Below, in pieces: positions 3-32,367 of a DNA stretch of 64,000 nt (position 1 is the first letter of the stretch; each line of letters opens with the position of its first letter). A program made the translations under genes and the position numbers. Origin of the DNA: a virus (lineage: Duplodnaviria > Caudoviricetes); the IMG/VR virus record IMGVR_UViG_3300027759_000043; one strand, 5' to 3'. Below the pieces are notes generated by a model. That model was given only the letters and a program-made list of their open reading frames with translations, was not told where the DNA came from and ran no database searches.

Positions 3-461
3 ATCAAGCAAACTTTGCCCCACAGTAGTACAATATTTTCAAACGGTTATCCAATAGCAGATTGTAATCTTCCTGCTTGTTATGATTCCTATATTCAGTT
101 GGTAGTAGAGACTACCATAATTGAAAAAATGTTTGTGAGTGAAAAAACTTGGAAGCCAATTGCCTCTGGACAACTTTTTTTAATCTTTGGCAATCCCGGA
201 ACAGTAAGTTATCTCAGAAATCAAGGAGTGGATGTATTTGACGATTTGATAGATCACAGTTACGATCACACACTAGATTGGAAATTGAGACTACATCAAA
301 TACATCAACAATTGGAAATTTTGATTTGTCAAGATCTGCGAAAAATCTATCAAGACACACGCGAGCGACGTGAGATCAACAGGCAAAAATTTCTTTCAGG
401 AGCCTTTGATCAACGTAATCACTATTTAGAACAATGCATCAAGACGTACCTACAAATCTAA
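3..461 (+). CDS. Glycosyltransferase-like protein (GT10-like 'ETxF..EKTxKPI..PF' family), 5'-truncated by window edge
   Basis: Frame open to window start; VVETT..SEKTWKPIASGQLFLIFG..G.DVFDDLIDHSYD motif shared with five paralogs at 45.8-61.7 kb. Confidence 0.55.
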   Translation: MKQTLPHSSTIFSNGYPIADCNLPACYDSYIQLVVETTIIEKMFVSEKTWKPIASGQLFLIFGNPGTVSYLRNQGVDVFDDLIDHSYDHTLDWKLRLHQIHQQLEILICQDLRKIYQDTRERREINRQKFLSGAFDQRNHYLEQCIKTYLQI

Positions 462-502
462 ATTGCTATTAGTTTTTATCTTAAATAAATTATCAATCAA
501 AG

Positions 503-1117
503 ATGATCAAACTAGAAGATTACTCAAATCCTTTCCAAGCAATATTTGACTTTGAAACAGCAGTGGCCAAATTTACTGGCGCACCTTATTGTATCTCTAC
601 AGATTGTTGTACTCATGCAATCGAAATAGCATTTAGACTAAGTGACTATGAAGATTGGGTCACATTCCCTGCGTATACATATCTTAGTGTTCCTATGACC
701 ATGCACAAGTTAAATATTCCGTATCAGTTGACCGACAACAAATGGAAAGACTACTATAAGTTTGAAGGCAGTCGCGTATGGGACTGTGCTCGTTATTTTA
801 AACCGGATATGTATGTGGCAGGAAGCATACAGTGCATTAGTTTTGGACGGAGTAAACCGTTGGAAATTGGCCAAGGTGGATGTATACTAACCGATGATGC
901 TGAAATATATCGCAAGGCCAGCATGATGCGGTACGATGGTCGAGATCTGCGCATCGGCCCATGGATTGAACAAAAAGAATTTCAAGTAGGTTATCATTAT
1001 TACATGCGGCCTGAAGAATGTGTCACTGGACTTAACTTACTGGCAGAAAAAAAATTTACCACGCAACTGGATAAACATTTTGTTTATCCAGATGTTAGCA
1101 GTATATCCATTAAGTAG
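503..1117 (+). CDS. Short DegT/DnrJ/EryC1/StrS-family PLP aminotransferase-like protein
   Basis: FETAVAKFTGAPYCIST, DCAR and SFGRSKPLEIGQGG (PLP lysine) motifs; only 204 aa. Confidence 0.75.
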   Translation: MIKLEDYSNPFQAIFDFETAVAKFTGAPYCISTDCCTHAIEIAFRLSDYEDWVTFPAYTYLSVPMTMHKLNIPYQLTDNKWKDYYKFEGSRVWDCARYFKPDMYVAGSIQCISFGRSKPLEIGQGGCILTDDAEIYRKASMMRYDGRDLRIGPWIEQKEFQVGYHYYMRPEECVTGLNLLAEKKFTTQLDKHFVYPDVSSISIK

Positions 1118-1128
1118 ACTTTGCACGT

Positions 1129-1731
1129 ATGAAAATACTATTATTAGGAGATAGTTTTGGGGCAGATTGGACTGTGAAATATCCAGATCAAGTGGGCTGG
1201 CCTAATTTGCTGTCCAGAGAGTATGAGGTGGATAATCAATGCCAGGCAGGTAGTAGTGAATTCCGAATTCAGACACAATTGGTCAAACATTCATCAGATG
1301 ATGTTACACACTGCATTGTGGTTCATACAAGTCCCTATCGATTGCCAGTGGAACACAATCCACTGCACAAAGACGACTGCTTGCATCATTCTTGCGATTT
1401 TATATATAGTGATGTGGCAGAATCCGATAACTCTCAAGTTAACTGTGTTAAAGAATATTATGAAAAATATTTTTTTGATGAGTTCTTTTTGTACATACAC
1501 AAGTTGATTGTCAGCGATATCAGTCGCACTCTCAAAGAAAAAAATATACCTAGTTTGCACATCACATTCTTTGACAATGGTGATGAGCAGATTGACATCA
1601 ACTATAATAAGTTGTTTGTTAAATCCCCGGGAGTGATAAATCATTTGTCATCTGAGGCAAATAAACAAGTATTTGATGATATAAAAAAATGGATCGACAA
1701 TGTTGATGCTATTTTACCTTTTGTCAAATAA
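1129..1731 (+). CDS. SGNH/GDSL hydrolase-like protein
   Basis: N-terminal LLGDSF, GSSE block, C-terminal NHLS. Confidence 0.6.
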   Translation: MKILLLGDSFGADWTVKYPDQVGWPNLLSREYEVDNQCQAGSSEFRIQTQLVKHSSDDVTHCIVVHTSPYRLPVEHNPLHKDDCLHHSCDFIYSDVAESDNSQVNCVKEYYEKYFFDEFFLYIHKLIVSDISRTLKEKNIPSLHITFFDNGDEQIDINYNKLFVKSPGVINHLSSEANKQVFDDIKKWIDNVDAILPFVK

Positions 1732-22518: not shown

Positions 22519-23124
22519 ATGCCAGCAATATTTTTGGTCAGCGACACGCACTTTGGCCACGCCGGTGTGTGTCGCTTCACACACCCCGACGATCCTGAAG
22601 TGAAATTGCGTCCCTGGTCAGATCCAGATGAGATGGATGAAGAAATGATCCGGCGTTGGAACGACCGTGTGCGTCCTAATGACAAGGTGTATCACTTGGG
22701 CGATGTAGTTATTAACCGCAAAGCCTTGAAGACGTTGTCCAGGTTGAACGGTGACAAGGTGTTGATCCGTGGCAACCACGACATCTTCCGTGATGACGAG
22801 TACCGCGAATACTTTCGTGAGTTACGTGCATACCATGTAATGAACGGAATGATCTTGAGTCATATTCCTGTGCATGAGGCTTCATTGGGTCGCTTTGGTG
22901 TTAACATTCACGGACACTTGCATGCCAGTCGTGTGAAGAAAGCACGTGGTGTTGATGCCAAGACTGGTGCTACATTGTACAGCACTGAGATTGATCCAAG
23001 ATACCATTGCGTTTGTGTGGAACTTACAGACTTTACACCTATCTTGTTTGAAGATGTGATCCGACGCATCGAAGCAGAAGGTGGGGTAGTTGGTTTCAAA
23101 TCCGGCAACGGTCCTGCTATGTAG
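22519..23124 (+). CDS. Calcineurin-like metallophosphoesterase
   Basis: SDTHFGH, HLGD, GNHD, SHIP, HGHLH. Confidence 0.9.
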   Translation: MPAIFLVSDTHFGHAGVCRFTHPDDPEVKLRPWSDPDEMDEEMIRRWNDRVRPNDKVYHLGDVVINRKALKTLSRLNGDKVLIRGNHDIFRDDEYREYFRELRAYHVMNGMILSHIPVHEASLGRFGVNIHGHLHASRVKKARGVDAKTGATLYSTEIDPRYHCVCVELTDFTPILFEDVIRRIEAEGGVVGFKSGNGPAM

Positions 23125-23127
23125 AGG

Positions 23128-23156
23128 TTGACAGATCATAAATAAACCTGTACAAT
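23128..23156 (+). promoter_or_regulatory. sigma70 promoter of leader peptide
   Basis: TTGACA(23128)-17-TACAAT(23151). Confidence 0.8.
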
Positions 23157-23165
23157 AAACACAAC

Positions 23166-23297
23166 ATGAAACATTCTGCACACAATTCAAATTATCTACC
23201 CACACTAGGTCTAGGCACCTGTGCCGCCTTGTGGTCTACGACTGAGAACAATGGCAGTGAATCAGATGAGATCAGGGTCCGAGGAGACAGGGTATAG
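23166..23297 (+). CDS. 43-aa putative leader peptide (MKHSAHNSNYLPTLGLGTCAALWSTTENNGSESDEIRVRGDRV)
   Basis: ATG near predicted TSS; ends just before terminator; contains antiterminator-complementary CAGGGTCC. Confidence 0.5.
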   Translation: MKHSAHNSNYLPTLGLGTCAALWSTTENNGSESDEIRVRGDRV

Positions 23298-23322
23298 TTT
23301 AACAACTTACTCAAACTTCAAA

Positions 23323-23358
23323 GGACCCTGGATTAAAAACCCAGGGTTTTTTGTTTTT
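23323..23358 (+). terminator. Intrinsic terminator (possible attenuator)
   Basis: ACCCTGG/CCAGGGT stem followed by long T tract. Confidence 0.85.
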
Positions 23359-23369
23359 AGGAGAAAAAT

Positions 23370-23417
23370 ATGAGCACAGAAGAATATTGGCGATGGATTC
23401 ACGATAACGTACAATAG
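23370..23417 (+). CDS. 15-aa micro-ORF MSTEEYWRWIHDNVQ
   Basis: Strong SD AGGAG with correct spacing, directly after terminator. Confidence 0.35.
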   Translation: MSTEEYWRWIHDNVQ

Positions 23418-23455
23418 AGCGTTATCGAAGTGTAGTAGAAATACAACACATGGTG

Positions 23456-23484
23456 TTGACTAATAAATGAAAGACTGCTACAAT
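23456..23484 (+). promoter_or_regulatory. sigma70 promoter of tRNA/ncRNA array
   Basis: TTGACT(23456)-17-TACAAT(23479). Confidence 0.75.
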
Positions 23485-23568
23485 AGAACTTAACAAAGCA
23501 ACAAAGTAGATCGATACTGGTTGCAACAGATCTTTAAAAATCTCATTCATGTAGTCCTGCATTGCAGG

Positions 23569-23789
23569 CACTATATGAGAACACATTAGGGTTACCAGAC
23601 CCGTTAGAGGCATTGGTAGAAGTGAATCGACACCGGCGGGTGTCCGCTTGCTATCAGTCATGAGGCCGGCTCTCACCGTGAGGTGATCCAGAAAAGCGGC
23701 GGATCGTCTGGCAGTAATGACCGTGGTGACTTGGCCTCGCAAGCCAAGCAGAACGAGATCCACAACGGTTCCCAAATGTTTTTTCATAT
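23569..23789 (+). ncRNA. Structured ncRNA candidate Z (~220 nt, long closing stem)
   Basis: ATATGAGAACACATTAGGG pairs with CCCAAATGTTTTTTCATAT; internal hairpins GACACC/GGTGTC, GATCC/GGATC, CTTGGC/GCCAAG. Confidence 0.65.
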
Positions 23790-23865
23790 GGTGGGTTCAT
23801 CTAGAGGCCTAGGATAGTGCCCTTTCACGGCATTCACACCGGTTCGAATCCGGTACCCACTACCA
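23790..23865 (+). tRNA. tRNA-Glu(TTC)
   Basis: GGTGGGT/ACCCACT acceptor, GTGCC-CTTTCAC-GGCAT, GGTTCGAATCC, encoded CCA. Confidence 0.95.
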
Positions 23866-23945
23866 TATAGAAACATATTGCCGAGGAGCGACGTCTTTAC
23901 CATGGGCTCCGACCATAACGAGAGGTAGTGTGTTTCTATATGGTA
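23861..23945 (+). ncRNA. Structured ncRNA candidate A (19-bp closing stem)
   Basis: TACCATATAGAAACATATT/AGTGTGTTTCTATATGGTA with G-U pairs; inner GGAGC/GCTCC hairpin. Confidence 0.65.
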
Positions 23946-24068
23946 ACCATATAGAAGTATTCTTGGCATAAGTCAAAGCAGGAGAAGAAGCCTAGTATCT
24001 GCAGATGCGAAAGTTTCAGTGGTGCAAATCCCCTCCTAGGCCTGCCGTCGAGAGTGCTTCTATATGGT
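23946..24068 (+). ncRNA. Structured ncRNA candidate B (19-bp closing stem, tRNA-like T-arm)
   Basis: ACCATATAGAAGTATTCTT/GAGAGTGCTTCTATATGGT; GCAGG/CCTGC; GCCTAG/CTAGGC; GGTGCAAATCC loop. Confidence 0.7.
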
Positions 24069-24070
24069 AG

Positions 24071-24225
24071 ATGTTATAGTCAAGCATCGATAAGGTATCG
24101 TGTATGGACGCATACACTATTCGGGTCACAGCGGCCGGCGACTGATCCTAATATAACTGCATTCGGCTTTTGCACTCTTAGCGGAGGACGCATAAATTGG
24201 CATTCTCGGTGCTTGACTATAATAT
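24071..24225 (+). ncRNA. Structured ncRNA candidate C (20-bp closing stem, multibranch)
   Basis: ATGTTATAGTCAAGCATCGA/TCGGTGCTTGACTATAATAT; inner GTGTATG/CATACAC, GGGTCA/TGATCC, TGCA/TGCA. Confidence 0.65.
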
Positions 24226-24227
24226 TT

Positions 24228-24302
24228 GGTCCGATAGTATATCGGTTAGTATTTCGCACTGTCACTGCGAGGAGACGGGTTCGATTCCCGTTCGGACCGC
24301 CA
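24228..24302 (+). tRNA. tRNA-Asp(GTC)
   Basis: GGTCCGA/TCGGACC, TCGCA-CTGTCAC-TGCGA, CCA. Confidence 0.95.
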
Positions 24303-24309
24303 AGTTTTT

Positions 24310-24374
24310 GAGAGCCGCATCGCCCTGATACTTCCCTCGGTAACGAGACACTAGGTCTTGCAACAGCGGCTCTC
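24310..24374 (+). ncRNA. Small structured element D (9-bp closing stem)
   Basis: GAGAGCCGC/GCGGCTCTC; CTCG-GTAA-CGAG GNRA hairpin. Confidence 0.5.
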
Positions 24375-24392
24375 CCCTTTAAGGAGTTGACT

Positions 24393-24629
24393 GTGACTGA
24401 TACATTAAACAACTTGTCAGCAGGCATTACTGCTACTATTGACGACATAGTAGGCAATCACAGTTACACTGATAGATTAAAGAGCATGGGGTTCCGATCA
24501 GGACAAAGTATTCAAGTTCTTAGACGAACTCCGCATTGTATGCATGTGCGAGTGGGTTTCAGTGAGTGGGCCATACGCAACCAAGATGCAAAGTTAGTAA
24601 AAATTATTCCCCGAGAGCAATCTAGGTGA
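24393..24629 (+). CDS. feoA: Stand-alone FeoA (SH3-like) domain protein
   Basis: RLKSMGFRSGQSIQVLRR..HVRVG..AIRNQDA; SD AAGGAG then GTG 24393; stop lies inside tRNA-Asn. Confidence 0.75.
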   Translation: MTDTLNNLSAGITATIDDIVGNHSYTDRLKSMGFRSGQSIQVLRRTPHCMHVRVGFSEWAIRNQDAKLVKIIPREQSR

Positions 24630-24683
24630 AGGCGGCGGACTGTTAATCCGTGAAGCCTGGTTCGAATCCAGGTCGGGGAGCCA
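24608..24683 (+). tRNA. tRNA-Asn(GTT)
   Basis: TCCCCGA/TCGGGGA, GCGGA-CTGTTAA-TCCGT, G73, CCA. Confidence 0.93.
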
Positions 24684-24703
24684 ACCTCTTAATAAGTATC
24701 GTT

Positions 24704-25366
24704 ATGACATTCGAAGATTTATGTATATTATTTTACTATCCTCCTTCTGCTGGTGGTAAGTTTATTATCAACAGTTTGAGTCTTAGTAAAAATTGTGTGT
24801 TACATTCTAATGAACTTGCGCAATGGGAACTAGATCAAACTGATATTGATTTGTTATACAAAAAAAAATTAGAAACTATCTTAAAAACTGTTCCTGAAAA
24901 TGCACTAGATGGCACTTGGCAAAAATATGAATTAGGAGACTCTTGGTTTCAAGACAAAAATCTAACGATAACACCAGATCTTCAGAAGATTATCAATAGT
25001 TCAAAACATTTTTGTTCCATATATCATAACGTTGACGAACTTCGATTAATTTTATCAATGTATCCAAGAACTCGTGTTGTAAAACTTACCAACTATGTTA
25101 ACTGGATGATTTACTGTAGTGCAAAAACAAGAATAACAGATATTGATGAAAAAAGAATCCATTGGTCGTTTATTGATAAAAATGAAATAGAATCTCCGAC
25201 AGTTGACTGGATTCTTATCGATATCGATAATTCAATAAGATCTATGGCCGTGATGCAACAGCAAATAGAAATACTTTATAACAAATTAGGATTCGACGAC
25301 TTTGACGAATCACGGTGGCGGCAGTACTATATCAAGTATGCTCAAAGTCACAAATTGGCTCCGTAG
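24704..25366 (+). CDS. Hypothetical AT-rich protein inserted between tRNAs
   Basis: TAAGTA at 24693, ATG 5 nt later; YYPPSAGGKF motif resembles YFPGAGGNF of 29296-29946; stop inside tRNA-Trp. Confidence 0.65.
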   Translation: MTFEDLCILFYYPPSAGGKFIINSLSLSKNCVLHSNELAQWELDQTDIDLLYKKKLETILKTVPENALDGTWQKYELGDSWFQDKNLTITPDLQKIINSSKHFCSIYHNVDELRLILSMYPRTRVVKLTNYVNWMIYCSAKTRITDIDEKRIHWSFIDKNEIESPTVDWILIDIDNSIRSMAVMQQQIEILYNKLGFDDFDESRWRQYYIKYAQSHKLAP

Positions 25367-25433
25367 TTCAGTCCGGCAGAACGTTGGTCTCCAAAACCAA
25401 ATGTCAGAGGTTCAAATCCTTTCGGGGTCGCCA
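25357..25433 (+). tRNA. tRNA-Trp(CCA)
   Basis: GGCTCCG/CGGGGTC, TTGGT-CTCCAAA-ACCAA, CCA. Confidence 0.92.
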
Positions 25434-25438
25434 TACAT

Positions 25439-25526
25439 GGAGGTATCGCATAGCGGTCGATTGCACGGGACTGTAAATCCTGCGTCCCAAGGGACCTCGG
25501 TGGTTCAAATCCATCTACCTCCACCA
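25439..25526 (+). tRNA. tRNA-Tyr(GTA)
   Basis: GGAGGTA/TACCTCC, CTGTAAA loop, long variable arm GTCCC/GGGAC, CCA. Confidence 0.95.
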
Positions 25527-25529
25527 TAT

Positions 25530-25603
25530 GCCTCGTTAGTTTAATGATAGAACTCCGTCTTTACACGGCGGTTACGGCAGTTCGATTTTGTCACGAGGTA
25601 TCA
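25530..25603 (+). tRNA. tRNA-Val(TAC), wobble-rich T arm, ends TCA
   Basis: GCCTCGT/ACGAGGT, CCGTC-TTTACAC-GGCGG; no encoded CCA. Confidence 0.75.
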
Positions 25604-25610
25604 TTGCTTA

Positions 25611-25794
25611 TATAAATAACTTGAGCAACGCCAGCAAGGGCTGACGTCGGACTTGATATTGACGCCTAGGGTAGAGAAACCCTTTTACTAGTGTGTTACA
25701 CGTAGAACGCCAATTCCCGTAAACATATTTCTATGTAAAGCCAGAAACATCAACAAACACTATAACAAAGTGTAAATTACTTTTTGGAACTATT
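25611..25794 (+). promoter_or_regulatory. TATAAATA late promoter followed by long structured leader of tctC-like gene
   Basis: TATAAATA at 25611; hairpins CAGC/GCTG, CGTC/GACG, AGGGT/ACCCT, GTGT/ACAC. Confidence 0.5.
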
Positions 25795-26676
25795 ATGAAA
25801 AAACTTTACATACTCTTATGCTCTGTTCTGTATTTTTGTATTGCAAGCGCGGCACCTGTTAACATTATTTTACCAGTGCCGCCAGGCGGTGTCATGACCG
25901 ATCTTGCAATGGCTCTGAGTCAAACGTTGACCGATGAAGGCATTGAAAATTTTGTATCGTATCTGCCCGGTGCAGATGGTGACATTGCATATAATACTGT
26001 GCTAAAACAACAAGATAATGTTATCTTTGAAGTTGCAGTGGCACACTCAGTATTCAGCAACGTTCTTCGTGACCGAGACAATATCTACACCAAGAATATG
26101 ACAATGATTGCACCTGTTATCCGTTCACCACTTGGATTTGTGTCTAATAACAAAAACTTTGGCTCATTTCGCGAGTTGATTGAGTATGCAAAATTAAATC
26201 CTTTGCCTTGCGGAGTAAGTGCGCCACATGGTTCAGCAGAACTAGCACGTATAAACAAAAAGTATGGAACAAGATTTGAATCAGTTCCTTACAAAGGCAA
26301 TAGTCAGTTGCGCCCTGATCTAGTAGAAGGCACATTAAGATGTGCCCTTGACAGTGTAGGATCTCACATTCCTTTGCACAATGACGGCAAACTCAAAATC
26401 CTGTCAGTTACTCATGCCACGCGAGGACTGGATGTTCTAATGATGGATCGAGTACTGCCTGGATACACATTCGATAATTGGTTTGGATTTGCTATTCCCA
26501 AGGATAGCAACATATTAAAAGACGAGCGTGTGATGAAAGTTGTTAACAACTTACACAAGTCTAAAAAACTTGAGCCATTACTTGATGCTGGATTTTTACA
26601 TGCTGTTCCACAATCAAACATCGAAAAGATCATGGATCAACAAACTGATCAGTACCGCCAACAGTTGAAAAAGTAA
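25795..26676 (+). CDS. tctC: Bug/TctC-family tripartite tricarboxylate transporter substrate-binding protein
   Basis: Signal peptide, PPGG..D..A, PGADG.IA, VPYKG, DLVEG, DNWFGFAIPK. Confidence 0.8.
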   Translation: MKKLYILLCSVLYFCIASAAPVNIILPVPPGGVMTDLAMALSQTLTDEGIENFVSYLPGADGDIAYNTVLKQQDNVIFEVAVAHSVFSNVLRDRDNIYTKNMTMIAPVIRSPLGFVSNNKNFGSFRELIEYAKLNPLPCGVSAPHGSAELARINKKYGTRFESVPYKGNSQLRPDLVEGTLRCALDSVGSHIPLHNDGKLKILSVTHATRGLDVLMMDRVLPGYTFDNWFGFAIPKDSNILKDERVMKVVNNLHKSKKLEPLLDAGFLHAVPQSNIEKIMDQQTDQYRQQLKK

Positions 26677-26677
26677 T

Positions 26678-27796
26678 ATGTACGCTTACAAGATCGACAA
26701 TCAGTTTTTTAACAATATCTATTTGGCCTTACACGAGGCAAGAAAAACTCGCAAGCAGATAGAATTTTACTGTAACGATCAAGAGTTTGACAAGTACAAC
26801 TGGACAAGCGAACCAGAAGCAACGTTAGATTTTCTCATGTCGGTCTATGCCACAAGACTGCGAAATCAACACAAACGTTTGATAATGGCATACAGTGGTG
26901 GAACAGATAGTCACACCATATACAATGTTTTTAAAAACAACAATATTCACATTGACGAGATTGTTGTCAAGACAGAGAAAAGTTCCAATCATCTTCCTAC
27001 TGCTACTGCGGATTGGTTAAGAAACAATCATTGGGATAAGACCACACTGATCACCGAGGTTGATAATTTTGATCAAGACCTCAAACTAAAAGAATCACCT
27101 GATGAAGACTGGATCTGGCGTAACGAGCGTAGCCTGTTCATGTACGGAATATCTCCAATGGGCCAAGGCATTATTGATCGGCTTGAACAGCGTTATGGAA
27201 ACACTGACTTTCGTTTGATTTGCGGGGTCGAAAAACCACGACTGATTTACAGAAACAAACATTGGTATCACCGTCAGATGGGCTTGTGTTTCCATCAAAT
27301 CATGGGCCACGAAAAAATTGTTCCGTTCTTTATGGAACCGTTGATTGCAATCAAACAAGCGCACATGTGCAAGCAAGCAGTCAAGCAATTGATTGCTGTA
27401 AACAAATTACCGTTGTATGACAACGATTGGGCTGAAGCCAAGTGGAATAAAACTCCCGAAGGATATCGTGCATGGTGCAACGGCACCGGACGTCACGATG
27501 AATTGTTTCTAGGTGTGAGTCCTGCACAAAAGGCGCTGAATGAAGTATTAGATCGAGTCGAATTTAACTTGTCTGGCAACTGGAAAAAAATGAACAATTC
27601 TAAAGATTTTAGATTATTGTATGACTTGCAAGATTCCAAACAGACTGCTGTAAACTATACCAAAGGCTTTTTGAACTTGTCAAGTGAGTTTGGATTCATT
27701 GGATGGCTTCAAGAAAACGGTTGGCTACGAAACTCTGAATCAGAATTACGTAGACTAAATTTTGTATGGTCCAAAGAATATGATTTGGGCCCGTAA
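26678..27796 (+). CDS. PP-loop (adenine nucleotide alpha hydrolase-like) protein
   Basis: MAYSGGTDSHT; G.EKPRL. Confidence 0.6.
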   Translation: MYAYKIDNQFFNNIYLALHEARKTRKQIEFYCNDQEFDKYNWTSEPEATLDFLMSVYATRLRNQHKRLIMAYSGGTDSHTIYNVFKNNNIHIDEIVVKTEKSSNHLPTATADWLRNNHWDKTTLITEVDNFDQDLKLKESPDEDWIWRNERSLFMYGISPMGQGIIDRLEQRYGNTDFRLICGVEKPRLIYRNKHWYHRQMGLCFHQIMGHEKIVPFFMEPLIAIKQAHMCKQAVKQLIAVNKLPLYDNDWAEAKWNKTPEGYRAWCNGTGRHDELFLGVSPAQKALNEVLDRVEFNLSGNWKKMNNSKDFRLLYDLQDSKQTAVNYTKGFLNLSSEFGFIGWLQENGWLRNSESELRRLNFVWSKEYDLGP

Positions 27797-27809
27797 AAAA
27801 GGATAAAAT

Positions 27810-28466
27810 ATGGACATAGGCGTTGATTATAAAAGACTAAGCGATTTTCCAGTGAAAATTCTTCAGCCACTACAAGAACTGGCATCAACAATGGATTGGT
27901 CATTACCGGACTTTGATAGGAACGGTGATTATTTGAACAACGCCATTGTTAGGGTGCCATATGGTATTCGCAAAGAACCACTGCAATCATTGACGCCAAT
28001 TATTCAACAGTTTTTAGATGCGTTTGCTCCCATTGACGCCTACATGAAAACGTTGTATCCACAACATGTATTCATCAAATGCGAAATGAACTGGCTCAAG
28101 CCTGGCGAAGTAGTGCCAATTCATAAAGATAATTGTTGGTGGCACAAACATTGTCCTCGTGTGCATGTTCCTGTAATCACAAACAAGCAATGTGGTTGGG
28201 TAGTAGAAGGACGTTTGCATCATCTACCAGTGGGCAGTTACTATGAAGTCAACAATAGAAAATTCCATTCTGCTGTTAACAATGGCAACAATGGTAGGTT
28301 GCACCTGGTGTTTGATATCATGGAACAATCGGTGTATGATAATGCTGTTGCCGCAGGAATCGACATTAGTCATCAAGACATTGTTGATCATAAACTGAGC
28401 AGTTGGGATCAATTGCCTAACGACAAAGATAACCGTCTGTTGGCTTCACTGGGGTTTGTTTTATAA
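27810..28466 (+). CDS. Aspartyl/asparaginyl beta-hydroxylase-like 2OG-Fe(II) oxygenase
   Basis: IHKD..RVHVPVITN..EVNNRKFHSAVN..RLHLVFD. Confidence 0.8.
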   Translation: MDIGVDYKRLSDFPVKILQPLQELASTMDWSLPDFDRNGDYLNNAIVRVPYGIRKEPLQSLTPIIQQFLDAFAPIDAYMKTLYPQHVFIKCEMNWLKPGEVVPIHKDNCWWHKHCPRVHVPVITNKQCGWVVEGRLHHLPVGSYYEVNNRKFHSAVNNGNNGRLHLVFDIMEQSVYDNAVAAGIDISHQDIVDHKLSSWDQLPNDKDNRLLASLGFVL

Positions 28467-28480
28467 AACTCTTTGTTGTG

Positions 28481-28509
28481 TTGACAAACAACAACTAATC
28501 GTATATAAT
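28481..28509 (+). promoter_or_regulatory. sigma70 promoter of second tRNA block
   Basis: TTGACA-17-TATAAT. Confidence 0.8.
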
Positions 28510-28528
28510 ACATGATAATAGAAACAAC

Positions 28529-28606
28529 GCACTGGTGGCAGAGTGGTCCAATGCATGGGATTGCAAATCCCAAAAGCCGCTGGTTCAAATCCAGCCCAGT
28601 GCTCCA
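28529..28606 (+). tRNA. tRNA-Cys(GCA)
   Basis: GCACTGG/CCAGTGC, TGGGA-TTGCAAA-TCCCA, U73, CCA. Confidence 0.95.
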
Positions 28607-28610
28607 AACG

Positions 28611-28841
28611 TTCCAGCGTCACTGGATAGTCTGACCCAGACGATGAGAAGTACAATGACATGTACGGGTGGTTCTGAAGAGGCAAATCTTCACATGGTAA
28701 CATGCGGTCCAACCTAACCGGCGTTAGCAACACGATAGCGGTCCCTGTCGGGAAGCGGGTGGAAGGAGTACAAGTTGCGGTGTGTAGTGGAAAGACTATC
28801 ACTCAATGCTCTATAATTACCGCCGGGGGACGCAGAGCATC
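28611..28841 (+). ncRNA. Structured ncRNA candidate E (~230 nt, many hairpins, possible pseudoknot)
   Basis: TCCAG/CTGGA, GTCT/AGAC, GTACA/TGTAC, TGAAGA/TCTTCA, CATG-GTAA-CATG, CTAAC/GTTAG; GTCCCT/GGGGAC crossing ATGCTCT/AGAGCAT. Confidence 0.65.
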
Positions 28842-28848
28842 TTATTAC

Positions 28849-28923
28849 CGCGGGATGGAGAAGCGGTAACTCGTCAGGCTCATAACCTGAAGATCGGCGG
28901 TTCGATTCCGTCTCCCGCAACCA
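28849..28923 (+). tRNA. tRNA-Met(CAT), initiator-like
   Basis: C1xA72 mismatch, TCAGG-CTCATAA-CCTGA, CCA. Confidence 0.92.
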
Positions 28924-28924
28924 A

Positions 28925-28998
28925 GCCCTTTTAGTTTAATGGTAAAACAGTTGATTTGTAATCATCAGACGTTAGTTCGATTCTATCAAGGGGCGCCA
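28925..28998 (+). tRNA. tRNA-Thr(TGT)
   Basis: GCCCTTT/AAGGGGC, TTTGTAA loop; one U-U mismatch each in anticodon and T stems. Confidence 0.8.
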
Positions 28999-29012
28999 TA
29001 CTAGGAAACATT

Positions 29013-29261
29013 ATGTTAGAATATGTCATCACCTTCTTTGCAGTATTTGCCACTGACTTGATCTATGTGTACTTTGTGAAATCAATTCAAGACAATCGTC
29101 CGCTGATGGCGGCTTGGTGGAGTATGGCGGTGACCTTTACTGCCAGTGTGGCAGTGATCAATTACACTGCGGATCACTGGGCCTTGATTCCGGCTTTGTT
29201 AGGTGCTTATTGCGGTACCTTGTTTGGCATGTGGATCAAGCGAAGAATCAACTCCGATTAG
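29013..29261 (+). CDS. Small membrane protein
   Basis: Three hydrophobic segments; SD AGGA. Confidence 0.7.
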   Translation: MLEYVITFFAVFATDLIYVYFVKSIQDNRPLMAAWWSMAVTFTASVAVINYTADHWALIPALLGAYCGTLFGMWIKRRINSD

Positions 29262-29295
29262 CATAACCCGGCAGCGCCTGTGATTTGAGACTAAT

Positions 29296-29946
29296 TCAAA
29301 TAAATGGGTCGACTCGTAATGATCGCCATTCCTGATAATAAAGTATACTACAATCAATTTCAGGAGTTAACTTTAATGCATCACAAACCATCAAGTATTG
29401 TTCCATGAAATAATCCACGCCTTTAAGAATTTGTGTCATTGACATTGTGACTGTAATCGGCAGCGCCTTTATTGTGATTTCTTCTGTGTATTGTTCATCG
29501 GTTATTTGATAGGAGGGTAAGAATATGCCAAACTGTTTAAAATAATTGAAAGAATTTTCTATCCAATGTCCATATTTTCCACAGTCAAGTTCAAGGAAAA
29601 CAATTTTTTCAAGATAAGATAATCTATCCTGATAAGTGTTAGTATGGTTTGTAACAATAGACCAATCAAAGCAAGAGTCCATCAATGGATTTTTATAATA
29701 AAAGTCTGGAGCAAAAAAATCATCACGATTATTATGAAATCTTTTAAAATCCTCCAAAGATTTGAAGCGCACCAGGTCTTTTCGTTGTTTTGCTGACATT
29801 GATTTTATTTGAATTATTTCTTCATCTGAACAGACACTAATTGGTTTGTGATAATATGGAACTGTTTCTTTGCTCAACGACAGACAAAATTTTATAAAAT
29901 TTCCTCCAGCGCCGGGAAAATAAATTACAGAGCAAGGTTTTATCAT
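29296..29946 (-). CDS. Hypothetical AT-rich protein
   Basis: TAAGTA 5 nt upstream on minus strand; YFPGAGGNF. Confidence 0.65.
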   Translation of the reverse strand: MIKPCSVIYFPGAGGNFIKFCLSLSKETVPYYHKPISVCSDEEIIQIKSMSAKQRKDLVRFKSLEDFKRFHNNRDDFFAPDFYYKNPLMDSCFDWSIVTNHTNTYQDRLSYLEKIVFLELDCGKYGHWIENSFNYFKQFGIFLPSYQITDEQYTEEITIKALPITVTMSMTQILKGVDYFMEQYLMVCDALKLTPEIDCSILYYQEWRSLRVDPFI

Positions 29947-29969
29947 AGGATTACTTATAGAGTTACATA

Positions 29970-30053
29970 GCGAGCATGAGAGAATTGGTAGATTCCAAGA
30001 ACTTACAATTCACTGCGAGATACGTCTCAATTCGACTCCGGGTGCTTGCACCA
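29970..30053 (+). pseudogene. Degenerate tRNA-Leu-type gene with TAC anticodon
   Basis: GCGAGCA/TGCTTGC+ACCA, Leu-like D loop and long variable region; loop CTTACAA; broken anticodon and T stems. Confidence 0.7.
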
Positions 30054-30203
30054 GGTGGTATCTAATTTAAACTCACGTTTGGGATTTATTAGCATAGGGT
30101 CTATCACAAAATCTCTACGCACAGTAGAAAACCAGTGTTCACGATACTGGCCTTGAGCCGCTTTGTACAATTCTTCAATGCCATGTTCAGTATCAAATCT
30201 CAT
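30027..30203 (-). CDS. 58-aa ORF (MRFDTEHGIEELYKAAQGQYREHWFSTVRRDFVIDPMLINPKREFKLDTTWCKHPESN), antisense to pseudo-tRNA
   Basis: TAAATA 5 nt upstream of ATG; missed by the 60-aa cutoff. Confidence 0.55.
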   Translation of the reverse strand: MRFDTEHGIEELYKAAQGQYREHWFSTVRRDFVIDPMLINPKREFKLDTTWCKHPESN

Positions 30204-30250
30204 AGCAATATTTATTACAAGTATTGCTCTCTCTAATGCTAACTAATAGC

Positions 30251-30898
30251 ATGATCAAAAGAATTGTTGCATATGGGGACAGTATTACCTATGGATACGA
30301 CTTGCCTGACTGTGACGATTGCCCTAGCAATTTAACTTATGCCGCACTAGTGGCCAAGCATTACGGACTAGAGTATGAATGTCGTGCAGTAGGATCAAAC
30401 GCCAATCAAAGTATCACAAGAAATCTACTAGATTCAGAAATACTATCAACAGATCTAGTGATAATCATGTGGACTTTTATAGATCGTAAAGATTTTTTAT
30501 TTGATGGTGCACTAGGATGGCGCAGTATTTCCGTACACCATACATCTCAGTATCCTTTTGCAAGTGAGTATTATAGATATATCGATACCTCACTTGATTA
30601 CGAACTGTACTTGACTCATAAAGAAATTGTAATTGTGCAAAAATATTTAGAAGCAAATCACATACCTTTTTTATTTTTGTCTGCTACTGATACTATTCTC
30701 AAAAGTTTAAATTGGGATAATACAAATCTATTGCACCTAATAGACAGATCAAAATGGGTAATACCTTTCCAAGGTCAAGGATTTTACGATTGGACCAAAG
30801 ATCAACGTTTAACAGTGCCCAAAGGAGGACATCCAAACGAATCGGCCAATCGTATTCTTGCTGATTACATAATCAGTCAGGATTTAATTAGTAAGTGA
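30251..30898 (+). CDS. SGNH hydrolase-like protein
   Basis: AYGDSITYG, GSNANQ, GGHP. Confidence 0.65.
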   Translation: MIKRIVAYGDSITYGYDLPDCDDCPSNLTYAALVAKHYGLEYECRAVGSNANQSITRNLLDSEILSTDLVIIMWTFIDRKDFLFDGALGWRSISVHHTSQYPFASEYYRYIDTSLDYELYLTHKEIVIVQKYLEANHIPFLFLSATDTILKSLNWDNTNLLHLIDRSKWVIPFQGQGFYDWTKDQRLTVPKGGHPNESANRILADYIISQDLISK

Positions 30899-30907
30899 AA
30901 ATATAAA

Positions 30908-30997
30908 GGAGACGTGGCCGAGTGGCCTATGGCACCGGATTACTAACCCGGCGAGGTAGCAATACCTCCGTGAGTTCGAATCTCACCGTCTCCGCCA
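30908..30997 (+). tRNA. tRNA-Ser body with ACT anticodon
   Basis: GGAGACG/CGTCTCC, G73, long arm GAGGTA-GCAA-TACCTC, perfect T arm; loop TTACTAA; A31-C39 mismatch. Confidence 0.85.
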
Positions 30998-31003
30998 GTC
31001 AAA

Positions 31004-31077
31004 GCGGGATTAGTTTAATGGTAAAACGAGATCCTTCCAAGTTCAAGTCAGCGGTTCGATTCCGCTATCCCGCTCCA
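31004..31077 (+). tRNA. tRNA-Gly(TCC)
   Basis: GCGGGAT/ATCCCGC, CTTCCAA loop, U73, CCA; weak anticodon stem. Confidence 0.85.
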
Positions 31078-31843: not shown

Positions 31844-32032
31844 ATGAGCCGGACATTGATCTGGGTTTTATCGTTTAGTGTGCTAGGGCCAGTGCCTGAA
31901 CACGGCGAACAAGCCAAGTTCAAAACTCAAGCCGAATGCGAGCAGGCCCGGGATCAAAAACGCGAAGAATTCCGATCCCAAAACAAACGGATCGTGGCGT
32001 CTTGTCATCTCAGCACAAAGGTTGACAAATAA
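31844..32032 (+). CDS. Small hypothetical (possibly secreted) protein
   Basis: Hydrophobic N-terminus, two Cys; TAAGTA upstream. Confidence 0.55.
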   Translation: MSRTLIWVLSFSVLGPVPEHGEQAKFKTQAECEQARDQKREEFRSQNKRIVASCHLSTKVDK

Positions 32033-32050
32033 TCAAAATAAATATATACT
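32022..32050 (+). promoter_or_regulatory. sigma70 promoter of tmRNA
   Basis: TTGACA(32022)-17-TATACT(32045). Confidence 0.8.
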
Positions 32051-32056
32051 GCTAGT

Positions 32057-32339
32057 TATTGCTGTATGAAGCAGATAAAAATGGATTCAAGACTCGGGGG
32101 CAGTGCCCGAATGGTCCACCAGAAGCATAATCGATTGGCTCATAGCCAGTTGAGACATAAGAAACATGATTGTGCTTCTGGTGGGCCATACACAGGATCG
32201 ATTGGGTCAGAAGTATTGAAGTGGACAGCACATCAGAGTAGATGTTAAAACTAAAAAAAAGTAAACGCAAACGACTCACAGTTCGCATTGGCCGCGTAAA
32301 GTAGCCTAGGGTAGGAAATACCTCGTAACAGAAACCACC
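32057..32339 (+). ncRNA. ssrA: Two-piece (circularly permuted) tmRNA, tag ANDSQFALAA
   Basis: Acceptor piece ends TCGGG-GGCAGTG-CCCGA-ATGGTCC-A-CCA (32121); 17-bp intervening hairpin; coding piece starts GGGCCAT (32183) giving G3-U70; tag ORF 32267-32299. Confidence 0.9.
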
Positions 32340-32367
32340 AAGCCCGCTTCGGCGGGCTTTTTCTTTT
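32340..32367 (+). terminator. Intrinsic terminator
   Basis: AAGCCCGC-TTCG-GCGGGCTT followed by T tract. Confidence 0.9.

Follow-up and report, generated by a model that had tools for sequence, protein, structure and literature searches.

A previously undescribed structured RNA family in a clade of uncultured giant freshwater phages

Positions 23569-23789 on the plus strand of the stretch of phage DNA analysed here (IMG/VR record IMGVR_UViG_3300027759_000043, 64,000 nt; the whole stretch is called the window below) carry a member of a previously undescribed RNA family, which is carried by a clade of uncultured giant freshwater phages. The family has about 70 (68-70) distinct full-length variants from IMG/VR and lake metagenomes, and all of its members come from contigs of uncultured giant (~350 kb) phages and from lake metagenomes. 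We found no description of this RNA in a limited set of publications. The initial annotation of the window had proposed a multibranched, structured non-coding RNA here and had named a homolog search with covariation analysis as a way to check it; both the proposal and the check held up, in that the roughly 70 variants share a covarying fold.

The evidence that we consider decisive for an RNA is comparative and not the folding energy, which is only modestly unusual at -76.9 kcal/mol (z = -2.8 against shuffles). The structure was first drawn by hand on a MAFFT alignment (A5) of 12 sequences from the subgroup to which the window does not belong, where 94.5% of the cells were paired, compared with 33-43% when the partners were slid. 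From A5 we built a covariance model (R1), which contained neither the window nor its subgroup, and against this model the window scored 86.6 bits (E ~1e-20). R1 was used to align 42 members, 37 of them distinct (alignment A6). For these 37, 92.2% of the cells were paired, against 33-39% in the slid controls, compensatory changes were present at 39 of the 49 pairs, and none of 500 shuffles reached the observed values. Since A6 was fitted to a covariance model, the count based on MAFFT is the independent check.

Two invariant or near-invariant U-G pairs in helix P2a would be C-A mismatches on the opposite strand, which fixes the strand that is transcribed. The claim that there is no plausible plus-strand ORF was also right: none of 68 variants has a plus-strand frame that stays open through the element, and the length differences among variants are not multiples of three. 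At the level of these alignments, we consider a conserved, strand-specific and non-coding fold with invariant junctions to be shown.

In the predicted fold (Table 1), the outer helix, or clamp, together with P1 closes a three-way junction whose arms are P2-P2a and P5-P6, and beyond P2-P2a is a second junction, from which P3 and Px branch off. The core, with its three-way junction and two helical stacks, is 173-197 nt long across the family. Its junction strands are near-invariant (GGTTACC, TAG, CATGAA, the A-rich strand and GTAATG), and all members that were found independently by the second search motif have the 16-mer GGCAGTAATGACCGTG unchanged. The window has the P1-P2-P2a-P3-Px-P5-P6 fold and the invariant junction motifs of the proposed family, on the strand that codes for the tRNAs.

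Table 1. Positions of the RNA, its parts and its neighbours in the window.
Feature	Positions	Strand	Remarks
Sigma70-type promoter	23456..23484	+	TTGACT, 17 nt, TACAAT; consensus scan 10/12 plus TG extension
5' leader, ~78 nt, with a small hairpin at its end	23491..23568	+	Conserved in L007 and L012
Clamp 5' arm and inner P1 (GGG)	23569..23591	+	21/23 positions pair with 23771-23793, two mismatches
P2 (CCAGAC) and P2a (CCGTT), 5' strands	23595..23605	+	Alternative pairings in subgroups
P3, long irregular hairpin	23608..23657	+	Apical stem 23629-34/23639-44, loop GGCG (23635-38)
Joining strand with CATGA(A/G)	23658..23667	+	Near-invariant family-wide, including L021, L060 and L219
Px, variable hairpin	23668..23689	+	Apical CACC/GGTG, loop GTGA; 4/4 basal pairs covary
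A-rich joining strand AGAAAAGC, P2a 3' strand GGCGG, ATC, P2 3' strand GTCTGG	23690..23711	+	
Junction strand CAGTAATG	23712..23719	+	GTAAT universal in the family, including divergent members
3' domain, P5 and P6	23720..23769	+	Pairing checked
P1 and clamp 3' arm	23771..23793	+	Final 4 nt belong to tRNA-Glu (its nt 1-4)
tRNA-Glu (UUC), immediate downstream neighbour	23790..23865	+	ARAGORN, Rfam
Element A	23866-23944		Between tRNA-Glu and tRNA-Asp
Element B	23949-24068		Between tRNA-Glu and tRNA-Asp
Element C	24069-24227		Between tRNA-Glu and tRNA-Asp

A closing stem of 19-23 bp had been proposed, and this agrees with what we see. The outer 4 bp of the clamp use the first nucleotides of tRNA-Glu, so 19 bp are left after cleavage at the 5' end of the tRNA. 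The clamp is kept in relatives with at least five different and unrelated arm sequences. A minority of the members (the L081, L124, L128, L138 and L119 types) have a weak clamp or none, so the clamp cannot be essential to the function of the core.

Inside the clamp, TTA links P1 to P2 in the window and AG joins P2a to P3. P2 pairs 23595-600 with 23706-11; one subgroup has CCAGAC/GTCTGG here, and the other has CCTACA/TGTAGG. P2a pairs 23601-05 with 23698-702 and occurs as CCGTT/GGCGG, CCACT/GGTGG or CCAGT/GCTGG. The apical stem of P3 has compensatory changes at all five of its pairs, and 37 of 69 variants have a GNRA tetraloop on Px. In the 3' domain, P5 is formed by ACC+GTGG with CCAC+GGT (23720-26 pairing with 23760-69), and both P5 and its ACC/GGT extension covary, with TGT/ACA in divergent members. 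P6 (23730-35/23743-48) carries the loop CTCGCAA, and seven of its nine pairs covary. An asymmetric internal loop in this domain has a purine-rich strand of 11 nt (23749-59).

Of the four inner helices in the initial annotation, GACACC/GGTGTC (the apex of P3), CTTGGC/GCCAAG (P6) and CCGT/ACGG (P5) are present, conserved and covarying. The fourth, GATCC/GGATC, can form in the window; however, it conflicts with the covarying Px and with the P2a pairing CCGTT/GGCGG and the second subgroup does not retain it, so that this helix probably lies outside the functional fold. We also rejected two other pairings. An alternative P1a, ACC 23594-96 with GGT 23767-69, was given up for the 6-bp P2 and the ACC (23720-22)/GGT pairing, because the latter alone shows covariation among divergent members. 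A possible contact between the CATGAA and GTAATGA strands, (T)CAT with ATGA, found no compensatory support (L131, L060).

The loops of P3 and P6 are complementary. The P3 loop is always GNCG across the family, and the P6 loop, or the equivalent hairpin in distant members, carries CGN'. Two G-C pairs are therefore constant in the P3-P6 loop pairing and the third is variable: G:C in 30 variants, C:G in 14, A:U in 9, C:U in 8 and A:G in 1. Nine of the 62 variants are exceptions, and the variants as such are related to each other. Because three Watson-Crick combinations occur at the variable position, a 3-bp contact between the two loops is suggested, which could be intra- or intermolecular.

Relatives were collected by scanning for exact motifs. 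The covariance model confirmed 74 of 79 metagenome loci, mostly from lake samples, and all true matches of the second motif carry the first motif too. Its extra matches in IMG/VR (L143-L166) lie in coding or low-complexity DNA and are due to chance. The same is true of the four matches, all in bacterial MAGs, that came from scanning 185,579 prokaryote species genomes for exact motifs and that all failed the covariance model, and of the single 30-nt match from BLAST against E. coli genomes. No family member was found in cultured phages. The window as a whole also has no close relative that we could find among them: BLAST against 50,697 cultured-phage records gave matches to tRNAs only, or none.

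The family has two main subgroups, about 60% identical to each other, plus more distant members (L021, L060 and L219) that score 24-46 bits with the covariance model. Each of three near-complete genomes of ~350 kb has one copy. Two contigs have more than one. L131 has two tandem copies at 93-514 (minus strand), the second of which is more diverged and has different P3/P6 loops, and L219 has a canonical and a distant copy about 2 kb apart (1-95 and 2030-2233). A metallophosphatase gene that flanks the element has hundreds of relatives in IMG/VR, and the element is at the same place in only 2 of 80 metallophosphatase loci, which indicates that the region is mosaic.

The window resembles part of a giant phage genome, with nearly all genes on one strand, 11 tRNA genes within 23790-31077 (ARAGORN, Rfam) and auxiliary genes that include radical-SAM enzymes. 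The tmRNA gene at 32009-32362 matches betaproteobacterial and permuted tmRNA models, and this type of phage-encoded tmRNA hints at a betaproteobacterial host. The element lies between a sigma70-type promoter and tRNA-Glu, with no terminator between it and the tRNA in the window. Both promoter hexamers (-35 and -10) are invariant in the relatives L007 and L012, and the inferred transcription start is near 23491. The hairpin at the end of the leader, in which CCTG (23556-59) pairs with CAGG (23565-68), was checked for pairing and covaries in relatives (CCTG/CAGG against AACCC/GGGTT). The element had been called the first product of the array promoter. It is the first structured product, given the conserved promoter boxes, but the transcript would start about 78 nt earlier. 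As had also been noted, the element is GC-rich relative to its flank, with a G+C of 0.545 at 23600-23799 against 0.35-0.37 just upstream.

Upstream of this promoter is a separate unit (23128-23358) with a promoter of its own at 23128-56 (TTGACA, 17 nt, TACAAT, a perfect spacing), a nearly leaderless ORF of 43 codons (23166-23297) and a strong intrinsic terminator at ~23325-23358; an sRNA gene and a leader-peptide attenuator are both conceivable. Downstream of this terminator, and ahead of the RNA's own promoter, is a 15-codon ORF, MSTEEYWRWIHDNVQ (23370-23417), with an AGGAG ribosome-binding site. TRNA types of the downstream array decode 11 of its 15 residues, where ~8 are expected, so this is not clearly above chance. 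Within the tRNA array, the region 3' of tRNA-Asp (24310-24629) has an embedded GC-rich hairpin (GAGAGCCGC ... GCGGCTCTC), and an 80-aa ORF at 24387-24629 has a FeoA domain (Pfam E = 9e-11). Between tRNA-Asn and tRNA-Trp there is an AT-rich island (24650-25366, G+C 0.29-0.32) holding a 238-aa ORF without a Pfam or PHROG match, whose start overlaps tRNA-Asn.

The element is the first of several clamp-closed elements in the window. Rfam gave no match to elements A, B and C. The arm motif CCATATAGAA/TTCTATATGG is common to A and B, and the arms of all three are related yet cognate-specific: pairing energies are -31 to -35 kcal/mol for cognate arms and -12 to -22 for non-cognate ones. The arms of the 23569-23789 clamp likewise pair far better with each other than with the arms of the neighbouring cassettes. 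The close relative L012 (7319-7330) precisely lacks element A (window 23873-23946) between direct repeats ACCATATAGAA, and the element is found elsewhere in L011 and L049 at 87-91% identity. This pattern suggests that element A may be gained or lost by recombination between clamp arms.

Across the family, the RNA is usually near the head of a tRNA array. Among 66 informative loci, 34 have tRNA-Glu as the next gene and 22 have tRNA-Asp (56 of 66 together), three have another tRNA and seven have no tRNA. In nearly all of the tRNA-Glu/Asp loci the tRNA starts 16-30 nt past the core, and there is usually no tRNA within 400 nt upstream of the RNA. In 45 of 70 variants, the 200 nt upstream include a promoter scoring at least 10/12 (L082 is an example). 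There are also other arrangements. In L136/L229 and L197 the RNA is a stand-alone unit without a tRNA, in which its own promoter directly precedes the clamp and a terminator follows ~70-100 nt 3' of the RNA. In L119, L125 and L210 it precedes a gene for a DUF7448 protein, and in L060 it lies 10 nt behind tRNA-Gln. In L241 (~1050-1300, minus strand) the product of the gene 3' of the RNA begins MGGYRQGSGRSKSGYY and, by eye, resembles phage homing endonucleases.

The element has no match in Rfam 15 at the gathering score, nor did cmscan find one for it in the window's 23100-24700 at E<=10 or for five diverse further members at E<=5. This covers RNase P, 6S, SRP, tmRNA, Y RNA, GOLLD, ROOL, pRNA, ribozymes and riboswitches. 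Thus the models of 6S, SRP and RNase P, which the initial annotation had named for comparison, do not match at these thresholds. In particular, no match was found to RNase P RNA (bacterial A/B, archaeal including type T), and by inspection the covariation-supported fold shows neither a conserved CR-I/CR-V arrangement nor a P4-like pseudoknot, in which a long-range helix would join the strand past P3 to the one that precedes P1-3'. There is no model match to 6S RNA, and the fold is multibranched with two junctions, not a long rod with a large central bubble. SRP RNA (4.5S or large bacterial), Y RNA/YrlA and phi29-type pRNA gave no model match either. The tmRNA models, including permuted two-piece ones, match 32009-32362 and not the element. 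GOLLD and ROOL gave no model match, and the core is well short of the size criterion of at least 580 nt. As for riboswitches and other cis-leaders, the missing terminator before the tRNA, the atypical closing helix of 19-23 bp and the copies that precede a protein gene were all considered. The TROVE (Ro60) domain, RNase III and RtcB are absent from five complete or near-complete relatives. Two further ideas were dropped: divergent members lack the codon-like GAA/GAC triplets that might have served as T-box-style specifiers for tRNA-Glu/Asp, and a likeness to E. coli M1 RNA, 4.5S RNA and the 23S GTPase centre came down to subgroup-specific 7-8-mers that are within chance.

Several known systems resemble this RNA in part. 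In bacterial rRNA operons, RNase III stems flank 16S and 23S rRNA, so that a helix of ~20 bp surrounds a structured RNA. Here too a helix of ~20 bp forms from flanking sequences in a polycistronic stable-RNA transcript, with cleavage being putative; unlike the rRNA stems, it is missing in some family members, and the phages have no RNase III of their own. The pRNA of phi29 has paired 5' and 3' ends, a three-way junction and two loops with covarying complementarity. Our RNA is a phage RNA of similar size with the same three features, but it comes from an unrelated phage type and nothing ties it to DNA packaging. GOLLD and ROOL are phage and prophage RNAs found near tRNA islands that form cages via kissing loops, and these contacts are conserved and were first seen as covariation (PMC5737381; 10.1101/2024.12.08.627333). 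The RNA described here is like them in being phage-encoded, in often adjoining tRNA genes, and in having an elaborate structure and a covarying loop contact. It differs in size, with ~190 nt where they have ~580 and ~800 (3-4 times as much), and in its helix layout, and in its case the formation of oligomers is a possibility. RNAC and RNAD of T4 are small stable RNAs of the T4 tRNA region that are matured with the tRNAs and whose biological role is unknown (PMC3014915, PMC9697503). Our RNA is likewise a small RNA from a phage tRNA gene region, and what sets it apart from them is its sequence, since it has no similarity to cultured phages beyond tRNAs.

The explanation that we favor, at a probability of roughly 0.55, is a stable, trans-acting non-coding RNA with a compact fold, which is single-copy, belongs to a new giant-phage family and is cut from a tRNA precursor. 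Its stability and processing are what we infer. Host RNA polymerase would transcribe the RNA and the tRNAs together from the strong sigma70 promoter, and an RNase P cut at the 5' end of the adjacent tRNA would free the 3' end of the RNA. The clamp of ~20 bp could be a target of host RNase III, or a double-stranded cap against exonucleases. The freed particle of ~190-220 nt would then act in trans, either by binding a translation protein or one of the tRNA apparatus, or by assembling with itself through the loop-loop contact. The stand-alone copies and the copies before the DUF7448 gene argue for action in trans, and not for a tRNA-specific action in cis. The tight link to tRNA-Glu/Asp may fit a cis role or inherited synteny equally well.

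That cis role is possible, although we are doubtful of it: the RNA would be a leader of the tRNA operon that controls or assists production of the tRNAs behind it, whether as a platform for RNase P/RNase III processing, a folding insulator, or an attenuator or antiterminator of a long untranslated operon. It would account for the promoter-proximal position in most loci and for the tRNA-Glu/Asp directly 3' in 56 of 66, and in the window the first 4 bp of the tRNA-Glu acceptor stem are in competition with the clamp. However, a leader of tRNAs does not explain units with their own promoter and terminator or copies before a protein gene, and in L060 the RNA follows another tRNA and so is not at the head of the transcript. 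No alternative terminator/antiterminator pairing is evident, and ~190 nt with near-invariant junctions far exceeds what known leaders of this kind need. Another idea is a selfish or modular "clamped cassette" that would move between tRNA arrays by recombination via shared arms and would have no function for the phage. Elements A, B and C with their related arms (CCATATAGAA/TTCTATATGG) speak for such mobility, as does the precise absence of element A between direct repeats in L012 and its presence in other relatives. But strong selection, both purifying and compensatory, acts on the core across subgroups that are ~60% identical, there is a single copy per genome and the RNA also occurs without the clamp, and we consider this improbable.

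A ribozyme, with itself or tRNA precursors as its substrate (it could, for example, be what the phage uses in place of part of RNase P), would fit the conserved junctions, the compact multi-helix fold, the frequent GNRA loop and the loop contact, all of them typical of catalytic RNAs, and the location among tRNAs. It is nevertheless quite improbable in our view, with no Rfam ribozyme model matching, neither the P4-like pseudoknot nor the CR-I/CR-V arrangement seen on inspection, and no pointer to a cleavage site. We put even less weight on a highly diverged form of a known stable RNA (RNase P, 6S, SRP, a tmRNA piece, Y RNA or phi29-type pRNA). The size of ~190 nt, the paired ends and the company of tRNAs and a tmRNA gene would suit one, and the GTAAT junction strand and the loop-loop contact may resemble the SRP Alu domain (with its U-turn) and pRNA. 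Against this, the cmscan searches were empty even at their permissive thresholds, the helix topology misfits RNase P and 6S, and the TROVE protein is absent from the five relatives. A minus-strand protein-coding region is already effectively refuted: an ORF of 121 aa does exist in the window (23422-23787), but it is open in only 9 of 68 variants, it has no Pfam or PHROG family, it runs through the conserved plus-strand promoter, and the substitutions are compensatory at the RNA level.

Large conserved structured RNAs of unknown function are rare and have repeatedly yielded ribozymes, riboswitches and RNA cages. We think it unlikely, but worth stating, that this one is a new phage RNA machine, being either a self-assembling, RNA-only particle held together by the covarying P3-P6 contact or a catalytic or tRNA-binding RNA. 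If it is an RNA-only particle, it would be a small cousin, in principle, of the ROOL and GOLLD cages; if it is catalytic or binds tRNA, its target during infection would be tRNA-Glu/Asp or the translation apparatus of the host. The comparative support is unusually clean, and at ~190 nt the RNA is small enough for direct structural work. The niche beside phage tRNA genes is common to GOLLD, ROOL and T4 RNAC/RNAD, and their purpose there is a long-standing question. As a third class there, and a much smaller one, the RNA described here would be a tractable handle on what phages do with the RNAs that they carry beside their tRNAs.
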